Shown here one piece after another: positions 9,987 through 42,835 of a stretch of DNA of 64,000 nucleotides. This DNA comes from an uncultured Gammaproteobacteria bacterium (lineage in GTDB: Bacteria > Patescibacteriota > Microgenomatia > UBA10105 > UBA927), in NCBI GenBank assembly GCA_964349125.1, contig CAYGFH010000003.1, positions 103,194-167,193 of the forward strand, in the 5' to 3' direction. The position numbers were made by a program, and so were the translations under genes. How positions within the stretch are numbered: position 1 is the first letter of the stretch; every line of letters begins with the position of its first letter. The notes under the pieces are model-generated. The model did not search any database, was not told where the DNA came from, and saw only the letters and a program-made list of their open reading frames with translations.

Positions 9987-10099
9987 ATACATCCCTACCA
10001 GAAAATCCCTAAGTAGTATATTGTTATATACGGAGGGGTTGAGATTGCTTCATCACCTTCGAGAATCTCAGGATTCTTCGCAATGACATACATACTATT

Positions 10100-11143
10100 A
10101 TGAGATTTACTACCGTTCAAAAAGCATTTGGAGCCATCATTGTAGCGAATATCATTTGGAGTGCTGCGTCTGTTATTTTTAAAATATCTCTGACGAACAT
10201 CCCTCCGTTTACCCTCGCGTTTCTCCGGTTTGCCATTGCTCCGCTTCTCATACTGCCGCTTCTCGGAAAGAAGGCTCAACTGCATCTCCATGAACGGCGC
10301 GATCTCTGGGCACTCGTTGCCTATGCATTAAGCGGCATAACGGGAAATATCATTTTTTACTTTCTTGGATTACAGCGTACCTATGCGATAAATGCCACAA
10401 TCATTGCTTCAGGAGCGCCTATCCTCACGCTCTTTCTGGCTCATACCTTTCTTCGCGAGAAAGTCAGCTTCAGAAAGCTCTCAGGTTTTCTGTTTGGCGC
10501 AGCAGGACTTGGAGTCATAATACTGCAACCGCTCCAGGCTCATGAAATTGATGGAACGGTGTCAGGCAATCTGTTTATGGTACTGGCAATACTCTGCGCC
10601 GTGATCCAGACTATTATCGGTAGAAATATTTTACAAAAATATAATCCACTCACATTTACCTTTTGGGCATTTATCATCGGGGCTGCCAGCTTCCTCCCAC
10701 TTGCTGTGCATGAGTACATCACCATCCCCCATCTGATACCTTCCCTCGATTGGCGGGGTTTTATGGGCATAGCGTACGGATCTTTATTTTCCAGTGCGAT
10801 TGCGTATTCACTCTTTGCGTGGGGGTTATCAAAAATATCCGCAACAGATACATCGCTTATCGCACATCTGGATCCGATTATCGGGACTATTCTGGGGTAT
10901 TTTGTCCTGAGTGAGCCTATCACCCGCCCGTTTATCACCGGTGCAATACTTATCTTTGTTGGTATTTATATTGCAGAAGGACGGCTTCACTATCATCCTA
11001 TTCACAAACTTCGGCGCATCAAAGAGCCTTTTGAAGATGTCCCCATCGTACTATCACCTCATCCCGTGAAGCGGCATAATGCGCATACCAAGGATGTGAT
11101 AGCCGCACTCTACGGCAAGGGTGATTCTACTGATACGCACTGA
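10100..11143 (+). CDS. EamA/DMT family transporter
   Basis: Ten predicted TM helices in two EamA-like repeats. Confidence 0.75.
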   Translation: MRFTTVQKAFGAIIVANIIWSAASVIFKISLTNIPPFTLAFLRFAIAPLLILPLLGKKAQLHLHERRDLWALVAYALSGITGNIIFYFLGLQRTYAINATIIASGAPILTLFLAHTFLREKVSFRKLSGFLFGAAGLGVIILQPLQAHEIDGTVSGNLFMVLAILCAVIQTIIGRNILQKYNPLTFTFWAFIIGAASFLPLAVHEYITIPHLIPSLDWRGFMGIAYGSLFSSAIAYSLFAWGLSKISATDTSLIAHLDPIIGTILGYFVLSEPITRPFITGAILIFVGIYIAEGRLHYHPIHKLRRIKEPFEDVPIVLSPHPVKRHNAHTKDVIAALYGKGDSTDTH

Positions 11144-16607: not shown

Positions 16608-17684
16608 TTACGCGCCGATTTTGAATTCAATGACATCGCCGTCCTGTACTATGTACTCTTTTCCTTCAAACCGAGCTTTGCCGTGCTCGCGAGCTGCTTT
16701 CCAGCCACGGAGTGTGGTGAAATCGCCATAAGAAACCGTATCAGATTTGATAAACTTCTTTTCAAAATCCGTATGGATCGTGCCAGCAGCAGCCGGCGCC
16801 TTCATACCCTTTTCTATCGTCCATGCCCGCACCTCTTTTTCCCCGCAGGTCAAAAATGAGATGAGGCCAAGCGTCTCATATGCTTTACGGATCAACAGAT
16901 CCAGTCCCGATGCCGTAACGCCGAGAGAGGCAAGATACTCTGTCTGCTCATCTGCATTCATACCAGCGAGCTCAGATTCCGTCTGTGCACAGATAAACAC
17001 GATCGGTGAAATCGGCGTAGATGGCGGTGTCGCCAGTTGGCCCTCGGACACATTCCCGATATAGAGAATCGGTTTCATGGTCAAAAGCTGGAGCGGCACA
17101 AGCAGTTCCCACTCATCGGGATCGGTAATGACCGTGCGGGCCAGTTTGCCTGCATCGAGCTCAGGTTTGAGGCGCTTGACCAGTTCAAAGCGTGCGCGAT
17201 CCTCTTTCGTCGCGTTCATTTTCGGTTCAGTTTGTTTGCTCAGGGTCTGTAAGTCAGACAAAATCAGCTCTGTTTCCACAATCTCCCGGTCACGTCCGGC
17301 ATCTGGCGCTCCCTCGACGTGGACGATATTGGGATCTTCAAAAAATCGCAGCACATGGCAAATAATGTTTACCTCGCGTATGTGGGACAAAAATTTGTTC
17401 CCCAACCCCTGCCCTTCTGACGCTCCTTTCACCAGTCCCGCAATATCCACAAACTCAACAACAGCGGGTACAAGCGGAGGCAATTTTTCCAGCTTTTCTT
17501 CCTCTTTGGTAATCTCGGCTAGCTTAGCAAGACGTTCATCAGGTACCGGGACAACACCTATATTTGGTTCAATCGTTGCGAATGGATAGTTGGCAGCCAA
17601 CGCCTGCTGTTTTTTAAGCAGCGCATTAAATAAAGTAGACTTCCCCACGTTTGCCAACCCAACGATGCCGATTTTCAGATTCAT
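16608..17684 (-). CDS. ychF: Ribosome-binding ATPase YchF
   Basis: G1 GLANVGKST, a TGS domain and a C-terminal YchF domain. Confidence 0.9.
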   Translation of the reverse strand: MNLKIGIVGLANVGKSTLFNALLKKQQALAANYPFATIEPNIGVVPVPDERLAKLAEITKEEEKLEKLPPLVPAVVEFVDIAGLVKGASEGQGLGNKFLSHIREVNIICHVLRFFEDPNIVHVEGAPDAGRDREIVETELILSDLQTLSKQTEPKMNATKEDRARFELVKRLKPELDAGKLARTVITDPDEWELLVPLQLLTMKPILYIGNVSEGQLATPPSTPISPIVFICAQTESELAGMNADEQTEYLASLGVTASGLDLLIRKAYETLGLISFLTCGEKEVRAWTIEKGMKAPAAAGTIHTDFEKKFIKSDTVSYGDFTTLRGWKAAREHGKARFEGKEYIVQDGDVIEFKIGA

Positions 17685-17765
17685 GGGGATAATTGTAGCA
17701 TGAAAAGAAGATTTATTGTTATGATTCCACCCGACTCACATGAATCGATTCATGTGAGTTATTAT
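17685..17765. repeat. ~80 bp promoter/operator module, copy A, containing a 20 bp perfect palindrome
   Basis: GGGGATAATTGTAGCATGAAAA...TTATGATTC...CACATGAATCGATTCATGTGAGTTA. Read on the minus strand it gives an extended -10 (TGCTACAAT) a few nt upstream of the ychF ATG. About 88% identical to copy B. Confidence 0.7.
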
Positions 17766-17817: not shown

Positions 17818-19020
17818 TTAATTATTCTGCCATTCAAATGATCTTGCTGTGTTTGTGTTAGGTTTAACAAACTTTACGCCGACCTCGTAGAGTCTTGAGT
17901 TGCTTTCATCGCGTGTAGTTCCATATTCCTCTAAAATCTTCTCAGCAATCTCCGGGGTATGCGCGAAGAATATATGATATTTGGCAGGCGTTTCACGATC
18001 GAGAGGATTCACAATTATAAACTCACTCGCTTCTGATGGCAATAATGGCAACGCTAATACACTGGCTCTGGATCCTGTATTTCTAAAAACAGCTTCAAAT
18101 TCCTGTGCTACGTTACCCCTTACGATTTGACAGTATTTTATATACGTATCAAAAAATGTATCTGCATATTTTCCGAGTTCAGGGTATTGAAGAAGTGAAG
18201 ATGTAATACTTTCGATCACCTGCGCTCGTTCCAAAACGCTGTAATTTGGAAAATCCTCATGAGAAAAGCGATCAATATCTTCTGTCGTTACTCCAATTTC
18301 CAATTTTTGTTCCTGTGACATTCCCGAATACCGTCTCCATAATTTTGGAGAATATGTCTGTACTGCTGCTACCAGTTTTTTCAGCAAAAATATGTTCCCC
18401 TCCTCCTCGGATTCGATGGCGAACATATGACTTAATACAGCGTCCTCGTCAGCATCAGCATTTGTAACTCCCTCGGCTAACCGTCCCAGAAATTCCTGTG
18501 GTGACACAGAAAGAATAAGTGAATCTTCTAAAATTTTAAAACCTTTTCTGACGCGTTCAGATCCAATTTGCCAACCGGGTGTTCGTCCGAATTGCTCAAT
18601 TAATACTCGTGCAGCAGCATACCGCACAGGAACAGAGCCTTCCGGAACTGTGTGGATATATTCACTTGGAACTGCTCGTGGATCGAAATTAAACGGGATT
18701 TCTGCTGATGGTCTTTTTTCTGATTGATGTAATAATTCATATAGGCTTGGGTTCAATTCTTTTGCCTTTTCCAAGATCCAACCACCCACAAGGTTACATT
18801 CAGCATACCGTTGAATTGTCTTTTCATTCCCACCGAAGGTTTCAGCTACCATTGAAGGATTTGGACAACCGTCAAGTACACCTAAAACACGTAAACGTTC
18901 ATCTATCGATGCATCAGGAAAGTAGTTATCTGTGCCTTCGACCCAATTTTTCGCAAAATGTAATTCTGCTGAAATTTCAACTGTCATAATAGTCGGATAA
19001 TTTGAATCGAATAATACCAA
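17818..19020 (-). CDS. Hypothetical protein (400 aa), accessory cassette
   Basis: Long ORF with below-average GC and no recognisable motif. Confidence 0.5.
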   Translation of the reverse strand: MVLFDSNYPTIMTVEISAELHFAKNWVEGTDNYFPDASIDERLRVLGVLDGCPNPSMVAETFGGNEKTIQRYAECNLVGGWILEKAKELNPSLYELLHQSEKRPSAEIPFNFDPRAVPSEYIHTVPEGSVPVRYAAARVLIEQFGRTPGWQIGSERVRKGFKILEDSLILSVSPQEFLGRLAEGVTNADADEDAVLSHMFAIESEEEGNIFLLKKLVAAVQTYSPKLWRRYSGMSQEQKLEIGVTTEDIDRFSHEDFPNYSVLERAQVIESITSSLLQYPELGKYADTFFDTYIKYCQIVRGNVAQEFEAVFRNTGSRASVLALPLLPSEASEFIIVNPLDRETPAKYHIFFAHTPEIAEKILEEYGTTRDESNSRLYEVGVKFVKPNTNTARSFEWQNN

Positions 19021-19124
19021 AATCCAGCCAGGAAGTCAAACTATAGGTCTTATTTTATAACCTAACTCTACGTCAAAAGTATTATATTTTGAAATCCCGA
19101 TATGTCTAGGTCTAAAGGAATTAA

Positions 19125-19673
19125 TTACCGAATATCTACATCCATGTATCCATCAGGAGCAAGAAGATCATATGCCTGCCGAAGAAATTTTTCCCTAAAA
19201 TCATCCAACTGCACACCTCTGGCTGATAGTACTCTGAGCGCATCAAAATCAGGATTAGAACCAACAAAGCGATGTGAGTGTATGAGGTCGAATGTTCTGC
19301 CAGAAAGAATAGGGATACTTCGTAAGCCACCACTTATAACCGTTTGAATAACATCCGCACTAACCCAATGAAGCAGTCTCGCGTCAACCCCCTCCTGTGG
19401 TTTTACATCGACTGAAAATACCTGGGCACCAAATACGGCACAGGTTCTGGAAAACCACGGAGGATACTCACTCGCCAATGATCCTGAGGCAATATCCAAC
19501 ACATATTGACCTTTAAGCACTGACCATGGAGCATCAGGTGATATCCAATTAGCAATTGCAGTTCGAAGTATTGCTATCGACGGCTTCGCCCGTTTGGCAT
19601 CTTTGCCAAACAACGGATGCAACCTATCCATCGCTTCTTCTACGAAATTTGGAGACATGTCATATTCATTCAT
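19125..19673 (-). CDS. Hypothetical protein, possible class I SAM-methyltransferase fold
   Basis: VLDIASGS (weak motif I) and LLAPDGYM (post-II-like). 182 aa. Confidence 0.4.
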   Translation of the reverse strand: MNEYDMSPNFVEEAMDRLHPLFGKDAKRAKPSIAILRTAIANWISPDAPWSVLKGQYVLDIASGSLASEYPPWFSRTCAVFGAQVFSVDVKPQEGVDARLLHWVSADVIQTVISGGLRSIPILSGRTFDLIHSHRFVGSNPDFDALRVLSARGVQLDDFREKFLRQAYDLLAPDGYMDVDIR

Positions 19674-19711: not shown

Positions 19712-19792
19712 TGGGGATAATTGTAGCATGAAAACCTGATTTATAGTTATGATTCTACTCAATACACATGAATCGATTCATGTGAGTTAGTT
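19712..19792. repeat. ~80 bp promoter/operator module, copy B, containing the 20 bp palindrome
   Basis: Near-identical to copy A, including TGCTACAAT and CACATGAATCGATTCATGTG (core ~19765-19784). Sits ~40 nt upstream of the minus-strand gene that starts at 19673. Confidence 0.7.
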
Positions 19793-19851: not shown

Positions 19852-20886
19852 TTATATTAGAGAATGAAGTCTATTAAATTCTGAAAACCCTCCATTTATT
19901 ATTTTACCTTTCTGAAAATTAGGCGCCCAACTCCGAATGTTATCTGATATCGTTTCCGCTTCATTGAAAGATACTACATGTAAAACTGGTTTTTTTGGGA
20001 TATGTGATAAAAGATCTTTTATTATATCGTCCTTTGCTCTATAACCGATTATATAAATTTCATCAGCTTGTTTAACCATTTCTTTACCTTTTTCAATAAC
20101 TTGTTCGTAAAAATTTATAAAATGGTCTAATTTCTTCTGAGCAAGTGGTAAAAATACCAGTGGATAGAAATAATCCATTCTTAAATTATCCCATACGTTT
20201 GCAATATCTGTATAACGAATTTGCTCGAGAGATGGACGTAATACCCGCAATGTTTTAATAGGAATCGCTCCATTCATGAAAAAATTATCCATAGCTAAAT
20301 CAATCCGAGTTTTCATATCACTATTGGTCGGAACTATCGGATCATTTTCTCGCTTTTCAATTACCCAGTTAACAGATCCGTGAGGCTTAATAAAGTTTGC
20401 TTCAAGATAGCTACTCATGCTCAAAAAACTCGTGTGAAAAACTTCTTCATATGCCCTATCCAACAGAGTGTCATAATTAAAGTTTATTATTCCAAACTCT
20501 TCATCTTCTACGTAAAGACTATTCAGAAAAGATCTATAAATATTATTTGCGCTATAAGTATTTGAGACATTTCTTAGAGTATTCCAAATGTACATAACGA
20601 TCCTGCCAAAAAGTCTTAACTGGGATTTTTTATGTATGGGTGATTTAATTTCTTCAATTTTTTTCCATTTTTCTCCTAACCATTCTTCAACAGAATTATT
20701 CTTTTGCAAAACTATTTCTTGTCTGAACACACCTAGCTCGCTAGATGTGAGCATATAGAGCGAATGCTCTTTATATCGACCATCGAATAGCTCATCTATT
20801 AACGGAGCCCTTAATGGGGAGGATAGTGGATATTCATTATTCTGAGATCCTAATGACGCACCGGCACCAAATATATAAATTTTCAT
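19852..20886 (-). CDS. SIR2_2-like (sirtuin-superfamily) protein, putative NADase-type defense effector
   Basis: N-terminal IYIFGAGAS, INFNYDTLLD and KPHGSV match the SIR2_2 (PF13289-like) signature. The gene is conspicuously AT-rich (~32% GC). Confidence 0.6.
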   Translation of the reverse strand: MKIYIFGAGASLGSQNNEYPLSSPLRAPLIDELFDGRYKEHSLYMLTSSELGVFRQEIVLQKNNSVEEWLGEKWKKIEEIKSPIHKKSQLRLFGRIVMYIWNTLRNVSNTYSANNIYRSFLNSLYVEDEEFGIINFNYDTLLDRAYEEVFHTSFLSMSSYLEANFIKPHGSVNWVIEKRENDPIVPTNSDMKTRIDLAMDNFFMNGAIPIKTLRVLRPSLEQIRYTDIANVWDNLRMDYFYPLVFLPLAQKKLDHFINFYEQVIEKGKEMVKQADEIYIIGYRAKDDIIKDLLSHIPKKPVLHVVSFNEAETISDNIRSWAPNFQKGKIINGGFSEFNRLHSLI

Positions 20887-38011: not shown

Positions 38012-39052
38012 TTATGGTTTGAGGTGTTTGTCGAAGAATGCGATGGAACGGTTCATAGCCAGACTAAAGTTGGCTGCAATATTATGATCATCTCCTTTGT
38101 ACTCAAACAGCGCAGACTCTTTACCAGCCGATTGCATACGCTCCTGCAGCTTTCTTGAGAACAGCACCGGTACGGTTTCGTCTGTATCACTGTGATGAAT
38201 TTCCAGTGGTCCTGATATATCGGTAAGGAATGATGTGGCTGAGATGGAATCCCAAAACTGCGGATTTTTTTCCGGTGTACCGAACTCATCCGACATTCGT
38301 TGCCTCCAACTGCGAGATTGAGACTGAGAGGGAAATGGCGTGATATTTGCCTGACGCCTGCGCCAATTATTAAGCAAATCATCATAGGATCCCACTACAC
38401 CACCCCAAATAACACCCGCTTTTACATCGGGTATGGTTACCATGACACGGAGCGTGATAAACCCACCCATGGAATGTCCCCACATACCGATCTTATCCAC
38501 ATTCACATCACCGCGTTTTTTGAGTGAAGAAACGGCATTTAATACATCAATAGTATAGTCATTTGAACCATATGCACCAGACGCGATACCCTCGGAATTG
38601 CCGTGACCACGATAATCAGGACGAAGCACGATGTAGCCGTTTCTGGCAAATCCGTCTACATATGCGATATATCGTTCGGTTGTCCTGTACTCTTTCGGTG
38701 GGATATAGCCATGATTAAACACAATTGCCGGGTATCCTTCAACGGGCATTGGTGCCATGGGAACCGTGAGCAGCGCGAAATTTTTGTTTCCCTCTGACTG
38801 ATACGATACGATATACCGCTTGTAATTACTGCCATTTGCGAGCGTTTCCTCAATAACAAGGTCGCTTCCGGGGTACTTACCGTTTCGGAGGCTCTCTATA
38901 GTAAGTGGATGCAGTTCTGCAGCGAAGGCATCGAGATTTTCCGCATCGTTTGTCATCGATATCCCAGAGGGAACATCTGTTTTAAATGACAATAATCGAT
39001 ACCCACCAAACGCGACTAATACAACACACAGCACAAGGATGAATCGTTTCAT
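38012..39052 (-). CDS. Alpha/beta hydrolase, S9 prolyl-oligopeptidase/dienelactone-hydrolase-like
   Basis: GHSMGG nucleophile elbow, a C-terminal Asp/His and an N-terminal TM/signal. Confidence 0.7.
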   Translation of the reverse strand: MKRFILVLCVVLVAFGGYRLLSFKTDVPSGISMTNDAENLDAFAAELHPLTIESLRNGKYPGSDLVIEETLANGSNYKRYIVSYQSEGNKNFALLTVPMAPMPVEGYPAIVFNHGYIPPKEYRTTERYIAYVDGFARNGYIVLRPDYRGHGNSEGIASGAYGSNDYTIDVLNAVSSLKKRGDVNVDKIGMWGHSMGGFITLRVMVTIPDVKAGVIWGGVVGSYDDLLNNWRRRQANITPFPSQSQSRSWRQRMSDEFGTPEKNPQFWDSISATSFLTDISGPLEIHHSDTDETVPVLFSRKLQERMQSAGKESALFEYKGDDHNIAANFSLAMNRSIAFFDKHLKP

Positions 39053-39972: not shown

Positions 39973-41820
39973 TTATAGTTGGCGGTTTCGCACAAACGGC
40001 GTTGGGGTGACGGTCGGCGTCGGATACCGGCCGTATTGGGGTTTCATAGTGGTTTTAATACGGATGTACGGATAGTTAAAATCATAGAGAATCCACCGTT
40101 CCCTATCAGCAAGATCAATGTGATTCAGTCTCTGATAGGCATCCAACTGATACAGAAAGGAGTCGACGCGGTCAAACAGAACAGCTCGATTGTTTAGCAG
40201 ATATTGGTATCCTGAATATTCCGACCGATTATACGCCTGCCATCTGCGATTATGGTCAAACCAATTGTCCAGCGCTTTTTTACGTATTTCCCACGGAACC
40301 TGAGACTCAGCAAGGCCAACTTCATATGATTTTTTAGGGATTTCATCGCGATACAGTTTCTTTACTGTGTCCCAGTCCCCGTATTTTTTCTCCAGTTGTT
40401 CGCGCTGCGCCACCAGTGAATACATGGCGAGTTTTGCATTGGCCAGGCGTGATTTTTCCTCATCCGTAAGCACCGCTTTATCTTTGAGTGTGCCGAACAA
40501 ACTTTCCGCGCCCGCGACGATTGACTCCCATGAGCTGGCGGAGTCCTCAGACATATTGGCGAGGTAAAACAGATCCGTCATACCGTCCCGTTTGGGTGGT
40601 GTGGCCACAATTCGCATATCCATATTTACAGCAGATAGGTAGCCAAGGGTGAACAGGGATATGACTGCCATCCCGATCATAAAATGTTTCTCCTGGAAAC
40701 TTTTCCATATGGCCACAAGTAACAAGAGCACGACATTGCCAAGAAGCCAGAACAAAAATACTTCCCCGATAATCCGCATACGGGTGAGCCCGAATACCTC
40801 TATATACATGACATCGCGCCGCCAGGCTGAAGCAAGAAGGAGGATGAGTTCCGAAATAAGCACGACATTAAGCCAGGTAAGAATCGGCTTCCCGCTCACC
40901 CTATGCTTTATAATCACCACATAACTGATCACCGATGCGATTGCCGCGGCCGTAAGAAGCTCCGTAAATCCCTGCCGCACATACTGCGAGTAGGTGATGT
41001 TAAATTGCTTAAATATTTCATGTGACGCGTACAGATACTTGCCCTGCATTGATAAAAACAGGCCAAATAATCCGACCAGAGAGACGACCGGGATAACGAC
41101 ATCCTGCGTGGAAAGAAATCCCAGTTCCAGATACTTTTTTTCCTGTTTGGATACTACGATAGTAAGACACCCAGCAAATGCCGCGGCGAGAAACACTGAC
41201 CAGCCGACACGGCCGACTATCTGCTCAACAAACTTCTCCGCCATCTGCTTAAATATCGGGTCTGCCGACATGAGGATCCCTGCAAACACCGCAAAAATAA
41301 TAACGGTAATACCTGCTGTTTTCATGATTTTGAACGGTTGCATCCAGGATGAAGTGGGGGTACCCTGAAGACCACCTTCACTCATACGCTGTATGAGCCG
41401 GAAAGGACCGAATATGCTTTGTATGGCATAGTGGACACCTGATGCGATCAGCTCCCAGATTGTTGTGGGGATATGCGGAGTACTCACTAGCAACATGAGA
41501 TATCCGAGAGCCCCTGCGGCTATCATATAGTCCATGGCCTGCACAAATCCATTGGCACGGTAGAATACCAGAAATCCTGAAACGATACTGACCAGTGCAG
41601 TGAGTGCGGATGTGATTGTGCGCTTTTCCCGTGGTACTGCAATAAAAATTCCAATCGTGGCAAACAAATGGAATACTCCGTACCCTATCCCGATTGCGCC
41701 GTGGTAAATACCCACGTTAAATCCGAAGATAATACATGTGAGGGAAAGAAAAAGAGTTGATACAGATATTCCCTCGTCCGGCTTGGTAACAGCGTCTTTT
41801 ACCCCTGTCCGTTTTACCAT
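39973..41820 (-). CDS. Polytopic membrane protein with a large C-terminal soluble domain
   Basis: About 12 TM helices, then ~230 aa hydrophilic. Its promoter region carries palindrome copy C. Confidence 0.5.
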   Translation of the reverse strand: MVKRTGVKDAVTKPDEGISVSTLFLSLTCIIFGFNVGIYHGAIGIGYGVFHLFATIGIFIAVPREKRTITSALTALVSIVSGFLVFYRANGFVQAMDYMIAAGALGYLMLLVSTPHIPTTIWELIASGVHYAIQSIFGPFRLIQRMSEGGLQGTPTSSWMQPFKIMKTAGITVIIFAVFAGILMSADPIFKQMAEKFVEQIVGRVGWSVFLAAAFAGCLTIVVSKQEKKYLELGFLSTQDVVIPVVSLVGLFGLFLSMQGKYLYASHEIFKQFNITYSQYVRQGFTELLTAAAIASVISYVVIIKHRVSGKPILTWLNVVLISELILLLASAWRRDVMYIEVFGLTRMRIIGEVFLFWLLGNVVLLLLVAIWKSFQEKHFMIGMAVISLFTLGYLSAVNMDMRIVATPPKRDGMTDLFYLANMSEDSASSWESIVAGAESLFGTLKDKAVLTDEEKSRLANAKLAMYSLVAQREQLEKKYGDWDTVKKLYRDEIPKKSYEVGLAESQVPWEIRKKALDNWFDHNRRWQAYNRSEYSGYQYLLNNRAVLFDRVDSFLYQLDAYQRLNHIDLADRERWILYDFNYPYIRIKTTMKPQYGRYPTPTVTPTPFVRNRQL

Positions 41821-41886
41821 ATAAGATCTATAAGGATAGCACTCACACTACGACTCATGCAAATTTGCATCTCATTGTTATGAACA

Positions 41887-41906
41887 CACATGAATCGATT
41901 CATGTG
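41887..41906. promoter_or_regulatory. 20 bp palindrome, copy C
   Basis: CACATGAATCGATTCATGTG, flanked by TTGTTATGA as in copy A. Confidence 0.7.
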
Positions 41907-41917
41907 TGTTATATACA

Positions 41918-42367
41918 TCAAAGTGAGTTTTTACCAGCGAGGTCTCGCTTCGCTTTGAATATTTCTTTGCCTCGCCTGCTCCAATCAGTCCCGTATCGGG
42001 GAGGAAGATTGTAAAACAATGCATCAAGCTTATCGATAAACCGATCCCAGTTACTTTTTTGTATAATTTTCTCAAGTGTGGCGATCGTTTTTGGGTTAGC
42101 ATTCTTTAGCCAGGCTGATACCGCTCCGGTTGCGGAATTGGATACATGAAGCATTGCTTTAACATCTTTCGGCCGCTTTCCACGATGAAGTAGTACCGCC
42201 ATGGCAAATCGCTTTGCCAACATGAGCTCTTCAGTATCAGAGAGAAAATCTGAAAGGAACACGGAAGCATCATCCGCAGTGCTCAGGAACGATATTGACT
42301 GCCAGAACTTACTAAACATCTCGTCTTTTATACTTTTATCCAAAGGATATTTGGATGTCTGTGGCAT
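41918..42367 (-). CDS. TrpR-like HTH protein (YerC/YecD family), paralog 2
   Basis: LSDTEELMLAKRFAMAVLL..GKRPKDVKAMLHVSNSATGAVSAWL parallels the protein at 368-679. ATG (MPQTSKY) at 42367; the ORF track uses a GTG at 42385. Confidence 0.5.
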   Translation of the reverse strand: MPQTSKYPLDKSIKDEMFSKFWQSISFLSTADDASVFLSDFLSDTEELMLAKRFAMAVLLHRGKRPKDVKAMLHVSNSATGAVSAWLKNANPKTIATLEKIIQKSNWDRFIDKLDALFYNLPPRYGTDWSRRGKEIFKAKRDLAGKNSL

Positions 42368-42378
42368 ACAACTATATC

Positions 42379-42420
42379 CTATCACAACTCACATGAATCG
42401 ATTCATGTGAGTTGTGATAG
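42379..42420. promoter_or_regulatory. 42 bp perfect palindrome (copy D) immediately upstream of the TrpR-like gene
   Basis: CTATCACAACTCACATGAATCGATTCATGTGAGTTGTGATAG. The 20 bp core begins ~23 nt upstream of the ATG. Confidence 0.75.
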
Positions 42421-42494
42421 TATGGAAGTAATACGTAAATCGAAGTGGAATAGATTACTCGATTACTCAGTCAGATAATCGAACGTACTAACGA

Positions 42495-42794
42495 CTAGTT
42501 TTGTTTCACGCCCGTTTGATTGCTTCCTTCGGTCATGGCAAGAAGTTTGCCCAATTCTTTCACAAACTTTTTCGCATGACTGCGACTCATACCAATTCGA
42601 GAAACGATTCGGATTTGATTTGTAGTTCCCAGTTTTTGCGCAACATCCAACACCACGCCATCTTCATTGGTAGTCATAAAAATATTGTCAGTATACAGAA
42701 CCGGTGTTGTATCCAAGTTCACATTGACCGATATATTTTGTGTCGCATCTTTTTGATCCATATTTATCCTTTTCTTCATGGGCACACAATACAC
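42495..42794 (-). CDS. Small protein, possibly DUF3467-like
   Basis: About 95 aa. The YTDNIFMTTNEDGVVLDV pattern resembles DUF3467. Its start region overlaps palindrome copy E. Confidence 0.4.
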   Translation of the reverse strand: MYCVPMKKRINMDQKDATQNISVNVNLDTTPVLYTDNIFMTTNEDGVVLDVAQKLGTTNQIRIVSRIGMSRSHAKKFVKELGKLLAMTEGSNQTGVKQN

Positions 42795-42811
42795 ATGAAT
42801 CGATTCATGTG
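42792..42811. promoter_or_regulatory. 20 bp palindrome, copy E
   Basis: CACATGAATCGATTCATGTG. Confidence 0.7.
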
Positions 42812-42835
42812 TATTACATGATTGAAACTCAATTA

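Follow-up and report, generated by a model that had tools for sequence, protein, structure and literature searches.

The DNA analysed here, referred to as the window, is a stretch of 64,000 nucleotides (nt) of contig CAYGFH010000003.1 (GenBank assembly GCA_964349125.1, positions 103,194 to 167,193). It carries a minus-strand gene for a 149-amino-acid (aa) protein, predicted to have the TrpR fold, with a copy of one and the same palindrome on either side of the gene, and three further copies lie elsewhere in the window (Table 1). The common unit is the 20-mer CACATGAATCGATTCATGTG, which is present in five exact copies; no other match was found in the window when up to 3 mismatches were allowed, and the number of copies expected by chance is 0.01. 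All five are intergenic, each occupying a gap between co-directional minus-strand genes, a placement with a probability of about 3e-6 in a window that is about 92% coding according to a crude map of open reading frames (ORFs). Most of the copies are perfect beyond the 20-mer, over 26 to 42 bp. The 42-bp version, CTATCACAACTCACATGAATCGATTCATGTGAGTTGTGATAG, which precedes the TrpR-like gene, is particular to this genome, as the 81% identical relative L007 (L numbers denote homologous loci in other genomes) has just the 20-mer there. A first-pass annotation of this DNA had argued that five exact 20-mers could not be chance and that one of them sat in a 42-bp perfect palindrome in front of the TrpR-like gene, and both statements hold.

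Table 1. Features of the window discussed in the text (distances are to the start codon unless otherwise stated)
Feature	Position	Strand	Remarks
TrpR-fold regulator gene, 149 aa	41918..42367	-	ATG 42367, stop codon 41918-41920
Upstream operator (predicted) of the regulator	42379..42420		42-bp perfect palindrome ending 11 nt before ATG 42367; 20-mer core 42390-42409, ending 22 nt before it
Downstream operator (predicted)	41883..41910		28-bp perfect palindrome, 7 nt past the regulator stop and 62 nt before the DUF4153 ATG; 20-mer 41887-41906, ending 66 nt before that ATG
Third copy	42788..42815		28-bp perfect palindrome; 20-mer 42792-42811, 30 nt upstream of the DUF3467-like gene
Fourth copy	17737..17756		52 nt upstream of the ychF ATG; perfect over 26 bp, 17734-17759
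Fifth copy	19765..19784		91 nt upstream of the 182-aa gene
DUF3467-like gene, 88 aa, candidate target	42495..42761	-	weak Pfam PF11950 match, E 1e-4
DUF4153 membrane-protein gene, candidate target	39973..41820	-	first of the array downstream of the regulator
78-nt promoter module, repeat copy 1	17684..17761	-	palindrome, spacer, extended -10, ychF ATG
78-nt promoter module, repeat copy 2	19712..19789	-	in front of the 182-aa/400-aa cassette
ychF, lineage-specific candidate target	16608..17684	-	palindrome 52 nt upstream
Two-gene cassette, lineage-specific candidate target	17818..19673	-	182 aa, 19125-19673; 400 aa, 17818-19020; flanked by the 78-nt repeats

The ATG given for the regulator is taken as the true start because the N-terminus that it defines, MPQTSKYPLDK (MxQxSKYPLD), is conserved in 26 homologues. 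Against Pfam PF01371 the protein reaches 25.6 bits, slightly short of the 27-bit gathering score; the L001 orthologue has 27.5, and precomputed matches to PF01371 exist for 50/50 full-length homologues. An AlphaFold2 model (predicted local distance difference test 87.6, predicted template modelling (TM) score 0.72) contains eight helices. When this model was compared with the PDB using Foldseek, the top 42 matches were all TrpR or TrpR-like structures, with root-mean-square deviations of 2.2-5.2 Å and target TM scores of 0.68-0.81, the exception being one 3kor chain (6.3 Å, TM 0.64). The predicted structure is an all-helical TrpR fold, to which helices 107-119 and 129-148 are additions relative to the matched structures. 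A profile built from 26 homologues ranked 3g1c (E 1.8e-7), 3frw and 3kor ahead of E. coli TrpR. Exhaustive searching with a subfamily profile gave 2447 clusters at E <=1e-3 and 840 at E <=1e-10, and the best 150 of the matches listed are mostly full-length, at 140-153 aa, together with some shorter fragments. Judged by sequence, the regulator is a member of a large and coherent subfamily of 145-150 aa in Gottesmanbacteria and Patescibacteria; the subfamily is apparently unstudied, and we found no published work on it.

The first-pass annotation had called the protein YerC/YecD-like, and had described that family as uncharacterised. The description is outdated, since B. subtilis YerC is HisR, the TrpR-family histidine repressor of Firmicutes (PMC9413887). 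The assignment was not upheld either: the protein stays below the TIGR02531 cut-off of 42.2 bits, giving no match at all, as does its homologue P0024 (another homologue, P0050, scores 26.5 bits), and its length of 149 aa and the non-histidine genes at its sites likewise led us to reject orthology with YerC/YecD in favour of a separate subfamily of 145-150 aa. TrpR proper (TIGR01321, cut-off 67.25 bits) was rejected as well, with no match for the window protein and 21.1 bits for P0050. No clear pointer to a metabolic role comes from the genes that adjoin the sites (ychF, DUF4153, DUF3467-like, abhydrolase, MFS, Dus, EamA and unknowns).

The arrangement seen in the window recurs across the family. 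The regulator has one 20-mer on each side in 3/3 reference genomes that hold the 20-mer, and also in L007 and L096. A protein-guided scan of metagenomes yielded 80 further loci, and the bracket was quantified using 72 distinct homologues, with a palindrome defined as at least 12 of 14 paired positions. By this measure palindromes were present in the upstream flank of 43/68 homologous loci and in the downstream flank of 41/70, compared with 21 of 1360 control windows. Typical positions are 3-23 nt ahead of the ATG on one side and 0-20 nt past the stop on the other, with median distances of 25 nt from palindrome centre to ATG and 17 nt from stop to centre. The homologous loci have 24 distinct core types, and the two cores of one locus resemble each other, at least 17 of 20 positions being equal in 22/26 loci, against a mean match of 11.7/20 between lineages. 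Distant homologues keep the layout with other palindromes, such as CACTTGAATCGATTCAAGTG at 57% identity, CACTTGCATCGATGCAAGTG in a Gottesmanbacteria genome at 60%, TGTAAATGAATCGATTCATTTACA at 56% and TACTATCAATTCATCGATGAATTGATAGTA at 44%. The co-occurrence of motif and regulator, for which the first pass had proposed a comparative check, was found: in all the genomes that we looked at, the palindrome accompanies the TrpR-like gene. Its view that the five sites define a regulon proved too simple: the conserved family unit is the regulator gene with two predicted operators bracketing it. Most of the 20-kb loci contain just these two copies, and additional ones, including those at ychF and the cassette, are lineage-specific; the DUF3467-like gene and its palindrome are conserved in the same place in L005 and L007.

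The palindromes also vary with the protein, and between lineages their two arms change in mirror symmetry. Core types sort with variants of the recognition helix, HVSNSATG going with CAC(A/T)TGAATC, HVSYSATGSV with CACTTGCATC, HVSDSS with ACATTAATC, and KVTPGT with GATGATAC followed by GT. The dyad centre, ATC on one side and GAT on the other and so itself palindromic, is invariant, TAC and GTA taking its place in a distant clade, and the outer arms ACT...AGT are kept family-wide at about ±12-14. The kept arms and the fixed centre together indicate a conserved operator of about 28 bp. These data bear on the possibility that another, unlinked DNA-binding protein recognises the palindrome and that the TrpR-like gene is merely one of its targets. 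Binding by the regulator is predicted from sequence, and in three genomes there is a site at the DUF3467-like neighbour as well, both of which leave room for such a protein. However, the TrpR-like gene is the sole gene adjoining palindromes in all lineages, operator variants follow its recognition helix, and the size and symmetry of the operator are as known for the TrpR fold, making an unlinked binder very unlikely.

A further line of evidence comes from promoter geometry. In 31/70 loci the upstream neighbour of the regulator is divergent, which leaves only the short, palindrome-containing gap as a place for the regulator promoter. A distant clade has TTGACA-17 nt-TATCAT as its promoter, with both the spacer and the -10 taken up by the palindrome, ATGATA..TATCAT. 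Among nearer clades TTGAAT or TTGCAT comes from the left palindrome half and is followed by 17 nt, TAnnnT, 6-7 nt and the ATG, a spacing from which a leaderless mRNA is predicted; a Shine-Dalgarno-like motif was seen in only 12/67 upstream regions. The counterpart in the window, assigned by homology only, is a -35-like ATGAAT, 19 nt, a -10-like TAGGAT, 8 nt and ATG, with the 42-bp palindrome overlapping both elements, and this promoter looks weaker than those of the relatives. The arrangement TATACT-7 nt-ATG, similar to that of ychF, also occurs in L031 and L037.

What we observe is thus the anatomy of the sequence, the co-occurrence of palindrome and gene, their co-variation, the fold, and the overlap with promoters in relatives. 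Because the palindrome is tied to the gene, co-varies with the protein, overlaps the promoter region and is low in copy number, we consider it probable that it is the DNA site of an autoregulated TrpR-fold binder encoded at 41918-42367. A dimer of the 149-aa protein would bind the dyad-symmetric site; with a conserved extent of about 28 bp, two dimers are also conceivable. The upstream copy would overlap the core promoter of the regulator, whose transcript would have no leader or a very short one, and binding there would shut off synthesis of the regulator, amounting to autorepression by promoter occlusion. The copy behind the stop codon would control, or insulate, the co-directional downstream genes, and the three further copies in this lineage may put the DUF3467-like gene, ychF and the two-gene cassette under the influence of the regulator. 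We infer the binding, its repressive sign, what the second operator does and that there is a small-molecule co-repressor.

Several observations weigh against this reading. A family-wide test for a gene-side -10-like hexamer at a fixed distance from the palindromes was negative, with no asymmetry, so we rejected the notion that a promoter is embedded in every palindrome; the overlap is clear clade by clade only. The autoregulated dimeric repressor proposed in the first pass is therefore backed by linkage, co-variation, fold and promoter overlap in relatives, and is not backed by this test. The DNA-contact residues shared by TrpR and HisR (Ala80, Thr81, Arg84) are not kept in the subfamily. In the window, isolated half-sites and degenerate cores occur no more often than by chance; the sites are either perfect or absent, a rigidity that is unusual for a regulon. 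Single sites perfect over 26-42 bp are longer than one helix-turn-helix dimer needs. In L030 and L033 the two palindromes of one genome differ at 1-2 positions, and the changes are mirrored, so that both stay perfect; neither these double changes nor the perfect 26-42-bp arms are explained by dimer binding alone. At ychF and the 182-aa gene the site is centred about 62 nt before the predicted leaderless start, a position from which, judging by the predicted promoters, simple occlusion cannot work. The downstream palindrome of the bracket is anchored to the regulator stop (0-20 nt) and not to the next start (0-122 nt away). Finally, L014 has a third 32-bp perfect copy at 10128-10159, upstream of no called gene, between the convergent stops of a thymidylate-synthase fusion and a GlmS-like gene. 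For the perfect arms, a neutral origin through correction of quasi-palindromes by template switching, an established mutational mechanism, is plausible.

Perfect arms and mirrored double changes would also be expected if the palindromes acted as RNA stem-loops, in stability, termination or translation control, or as DNA cruciforms, independently of a TrpR-like protein that is merely linked to them. The 42-mer folds at -30 kcal/mol (z = -7.8), and the L014 copy between convergent genes fits such a role. Nevertheless, any palindrome folds, so the folding does not discriminate, and the site-specific perfect arms can, we suggest, come from template-switch correction. The dyad centre is palindromic and invariant, which a hairpin loop would not need. 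Internal mismatches are G-U in 35 cases and A-C in 25, with no enrichment of G-U and hence no strand-specific RNA signal, and hybrid sites in L015 and L021, in which a CACTTG half is combined with a CACATG half, break the pairing by U-U and not by G-U. The stem is AT-rich and lacks a U-tract. Intrinsic terminators were rejected too, since the scan flagged only the fifth copy (19765-19784), on the plus strand, opposite to the genes, and left the other four unflagged; no consistent T-run was found in the flanks of the relatives' palindromes, and no palindrome site matched Rfam. We regard a hairpin role as highly improbable. The only Rfam match in the window was a tRNA at 1019-1090, inside a called 372-aa ORF (880-1998) that is probably spurious at its 5' end.

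Low copy number was assessed in a collection with one genome for each of 185,579 species. The exact 20-mer occurred in 3 reference MAGs (metagenome-assembled genomes), with 4, 4 and 2 copies, and in none of 2.9 million viral contigs. The first-pass annotation had named a high-copy dispersed repeat, of the repetitive extragenic palindrome (REP) or miniature inverted-repeat transposable element (MITE) type, as a finding that would overturn it; with 2-4 copies in each of 3 genomes this is not what the palindrome is, and 2-5 copies per genome and the absence from viral contigs led us to rule out a REP/MITE repeat. In the reference MAGs the 20-mer is 100% identical, compared with 65-74% identity of the surrounding coding DNA, so that it stands out by phylogenetic footprinting. 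The closest named homologues of the regulator and of YchF are from Candidatus Gottesmanbacteria and "Patescibacteria group", and it is on these that we base the assignment of the window to the candidate phyla radiation. The MAGs CAYHQC, CAYHHA and CAYIBX (L001-L006) are titled "uncultured Gammaproteobacteria", and in gene order they agree with the window and with contigs of Patescibacteria/Gottesmanbacteria; in view of this synteny and of the named homologues the title is probably wrong.

A related idea is that palindrome, gene and palindrome form a small mobile or selfish cassette like REP/RAYT (REP-associated tyrosine transposase) or IS200, the dispersed copies being its footprints. As with REP/RAYT and MITEs, palindromic repeats flank a small gene and further copies lie in intergenic DNA; the unit is compact (about 500 bp) with the repeats tight on both ends of the ORF, its neighbours vary among related genomes, and one copy has spread via a 78-nt duplication that flanks a two-gene cassette. 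In contrast to those elements, which number tens to hundreds, only 2-5 copies are present per genome, none in viral contigs. The associated protein has a predicted TrpR fold and is not an HUH/Y1 enzyme, and the invariant columns of the family contain no HUH motif and no Y1 or other catalytic motif. The chromosomal context is conserved: the downstream neighbours are differing truncations of one array (abhydrolase, MFS, DNA_alkylation, Dus) in lineages that are 44-85% identical, which argues for vertical descent with deletions. A mobile cassette is therefore extremely unlikely.

That array follows the regulator in the clade of the window, where the downstream neighbour always comes from the series DUF4153, abhydrolase, peptidase, MFS, unknown, DNA_alkylation and Dus. 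In the window the order after the regulator is DUF4153, abhydrolase, peptidase, MFS, unknown and Dus, and the array, with lineage-specific deletions, is also found behind the regulator in L001, L005, L006, L007, L011 and L096. A 12-bp core with one mismatch, TGAATCGTTTCA, at 39040-39051 falls within this array, in the signal peptide or first codons of the 346-aa peptidase gene, and was judged to be a chance match. In the Gottesmanbacteria-type loci L008, L010 and L014 the regulator is beside a deoxynucleotide-metabolism cluster of dCTP deaminase, thymidylate synthase, deoxynucleoside kinase, thymidylate kinase and thymidine kinase genes, with an AlkD-like DNA_alkylation gene also beside it; elsewhere in the family the genes behind it are those for RecJ, RecA, RmuC or NUDIX proteins, depending on the clade. 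RecJ, RecA, RmuC, NUDIX, DNA_alkylation and DCD are over-represented downstream, in counts that are not independent, as several loci are close relatives; a DNA-repair theme for the regulon is a lead only.

The downstream copy could act as the operator of the next promoter, as a roadblock to read-through or as a looping partner. The last two would make the operator pair mainly architectural: the same protein would bind, and the sites, about 490 bp apart, would insulate the regulator from read-through, by a loop formed via the C-terminal helices or by roadblocks, with control of other genes being secondary. Such a role is suggested by the bracket being the only family-wide feature, by the anchoring of the downstream copy to the stop codon, by the subfamily helices 107-119 and 129-148, absent from TrpR and HisR, and by the lack of an intrinsic-terminator signature at the sites in a genome that is 92% coding with few terminators. 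In the lac O1/O2, gal OE/OI and deo systems, too, identical or nearly identical operators lie around a transcription unit at spacings of a few hundred bp; here, unlike in those systems, the operators bracket the regulator's own coding sequence, and no helical phasing was found, a Rayleigh test on 26 centre-to-centre spacings not being significant. Moreover, the downstream neighbour is co-directional in 64/71 loci, as expected of a regulated target. We therefore consider a mainly architectural pair unlikely. A bolder version, to which we give slightly more weight though we still rate it as rather unlikely, is a "bracketed autoregulator" module of the candidate phyla radiation (CPR), in which the C-terminal segment would serve oligomerisation and the protein would bridge the operators, by a loop or a double roadblock, and so gate read-through from its own leaderless promoter into the variable array. 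If true, the gated array would include, depending on the lineage, DNA-repair and nucleotide-pool genes (RecJ, RecA, RmuC, AlkD-like, NUDIX, dCTP deaminase), and the protein would be one of few general stress or housekeeping regulators in these reduced genomes.

Returning to the autoregulated TrpR-fold binder, its type has precedents. Patescibacteria (the CPR) cannot be cultured alone and encode few regulators; they are not expected to make tryptophan. The protein shares with E. coli TrpR the fold (target TM 0.71-0.81) and, as predicted from sequence here, a symmetric dimer on a promoter-overlapping palindromic operator and autoregulation, and the tandem TrpR dimers on extended operators (PDB 1trr) are a precedent for a 28-bp site. 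It differs in that the sequence similarity is marginal (E 0.39 to 6ejz) and the operator is another. TrpR and HisR both bind 20-bp palindromes and often autoregulate, HisR doing so in about half of genomes (PMC9413887). For HisR the operator is the 20-bp palindrome cacTTTAnnnnnnTAAAgtg, confirmed in Ruminococcus gnavus with binding assays; the structure 3g1c is that of E. eligens HisR (PMC9413887). Of the solved structures, this HisR is closest to the window protein in sequence (3g1c, E 1.8e-7), and it has the same fold; the HisR operator, likewise of 20 bp with CAC...GTG ends, resembles the palindrome of the 57%-identity relative (cacTTTAnnnnnnTAAAgtg versus CACTTGAATCGATTCAAGTG). In contrast, HisR has <100-110 aa and the window protein 149 (50 residues more), with an added N-terminal MxQxSKYPLD segment and two C-terminal helices. 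The HisR operators stand upstream of histidine biosynthesis or uptake genes, whereas there are none near any site here; their centre is N6 instead of a fixed ATCGAT, the inner positions differ, and no operator behind the stop codon has been described for HisR.

The regulator type, as judged from sequence, is therefore a known one, and what is new is a Patescibacteria subfamily with a C-terminal extension, a predicted ATCGAT-centred operator of about 28 bp, and two such operators clamping the gene. No new regulatory principle is revealed. To our knowledge, almost nothing is known about the control of transcription in Patescibacteria, and the predicted regulator-operator pair, which is defined by sequence and spans at least 840 protein clusters, gives a handle on their promoters (leaderless TGnTACAAT, and TTGAAT-17-TAnnnT). 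The 24 operator types are natural specificity variants that can be tested directly in vitro or in a heterologous host, and form a natural series for the co-evolution of recognition helix and operator in the TrpR fold.

The two sites at ychF and the cassette have a history of their own. Both belong to the 78-nt modules of Table 1, which form a direct repeat (88% identity) on either side of the 182-aa/400-aa cassette. The two copies agree fully in the palindrome and in a TGcTACAAT extended -10, and have diverged in the spacer between these elements. At ychF this -10 (17692-17700, minus strand) is followed by 7 nt to the A of the ATG, the two together taking up 17685-17700. The arrangement TGnTACAAT-7 nt-ATG is conserved before ychF in L095 and L096, in each just upstream of position 10001, and none of the three genomes has a Shine-Dalgarno motif, so that leaderless translation is predicted. 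Relatives whose YchF is 93% and 82% identical lack the palindrome before ychF, which makes the ychF site a recent acquisition. Judged from the repeat, the ychF and 182-aa sites arose with the 78-nt duplication; the repeat has the look of a Campbell-type insertion, or of a promoter duplication, by which the cassette came to lie before ychF. Searches of the cassette proteins with PADLOC, Pfam and NCBIfam gave nothing solid, and its identity as a known defence system was rejected on that basis. The 182-aa protein has a VLDIASGS motif reminiscent of S-adenosylmethionine-dependent methyltransferases. Directly upstream of the cassette, a 344-aa protein (19852-20886, minus strand) has weak matches to SIR2_2 in Pfam (E 2e-4) and to SIR2 in PADLOC (E 2e-6), and this SIR2-like gene and the cassette may form a small defence or modification island.

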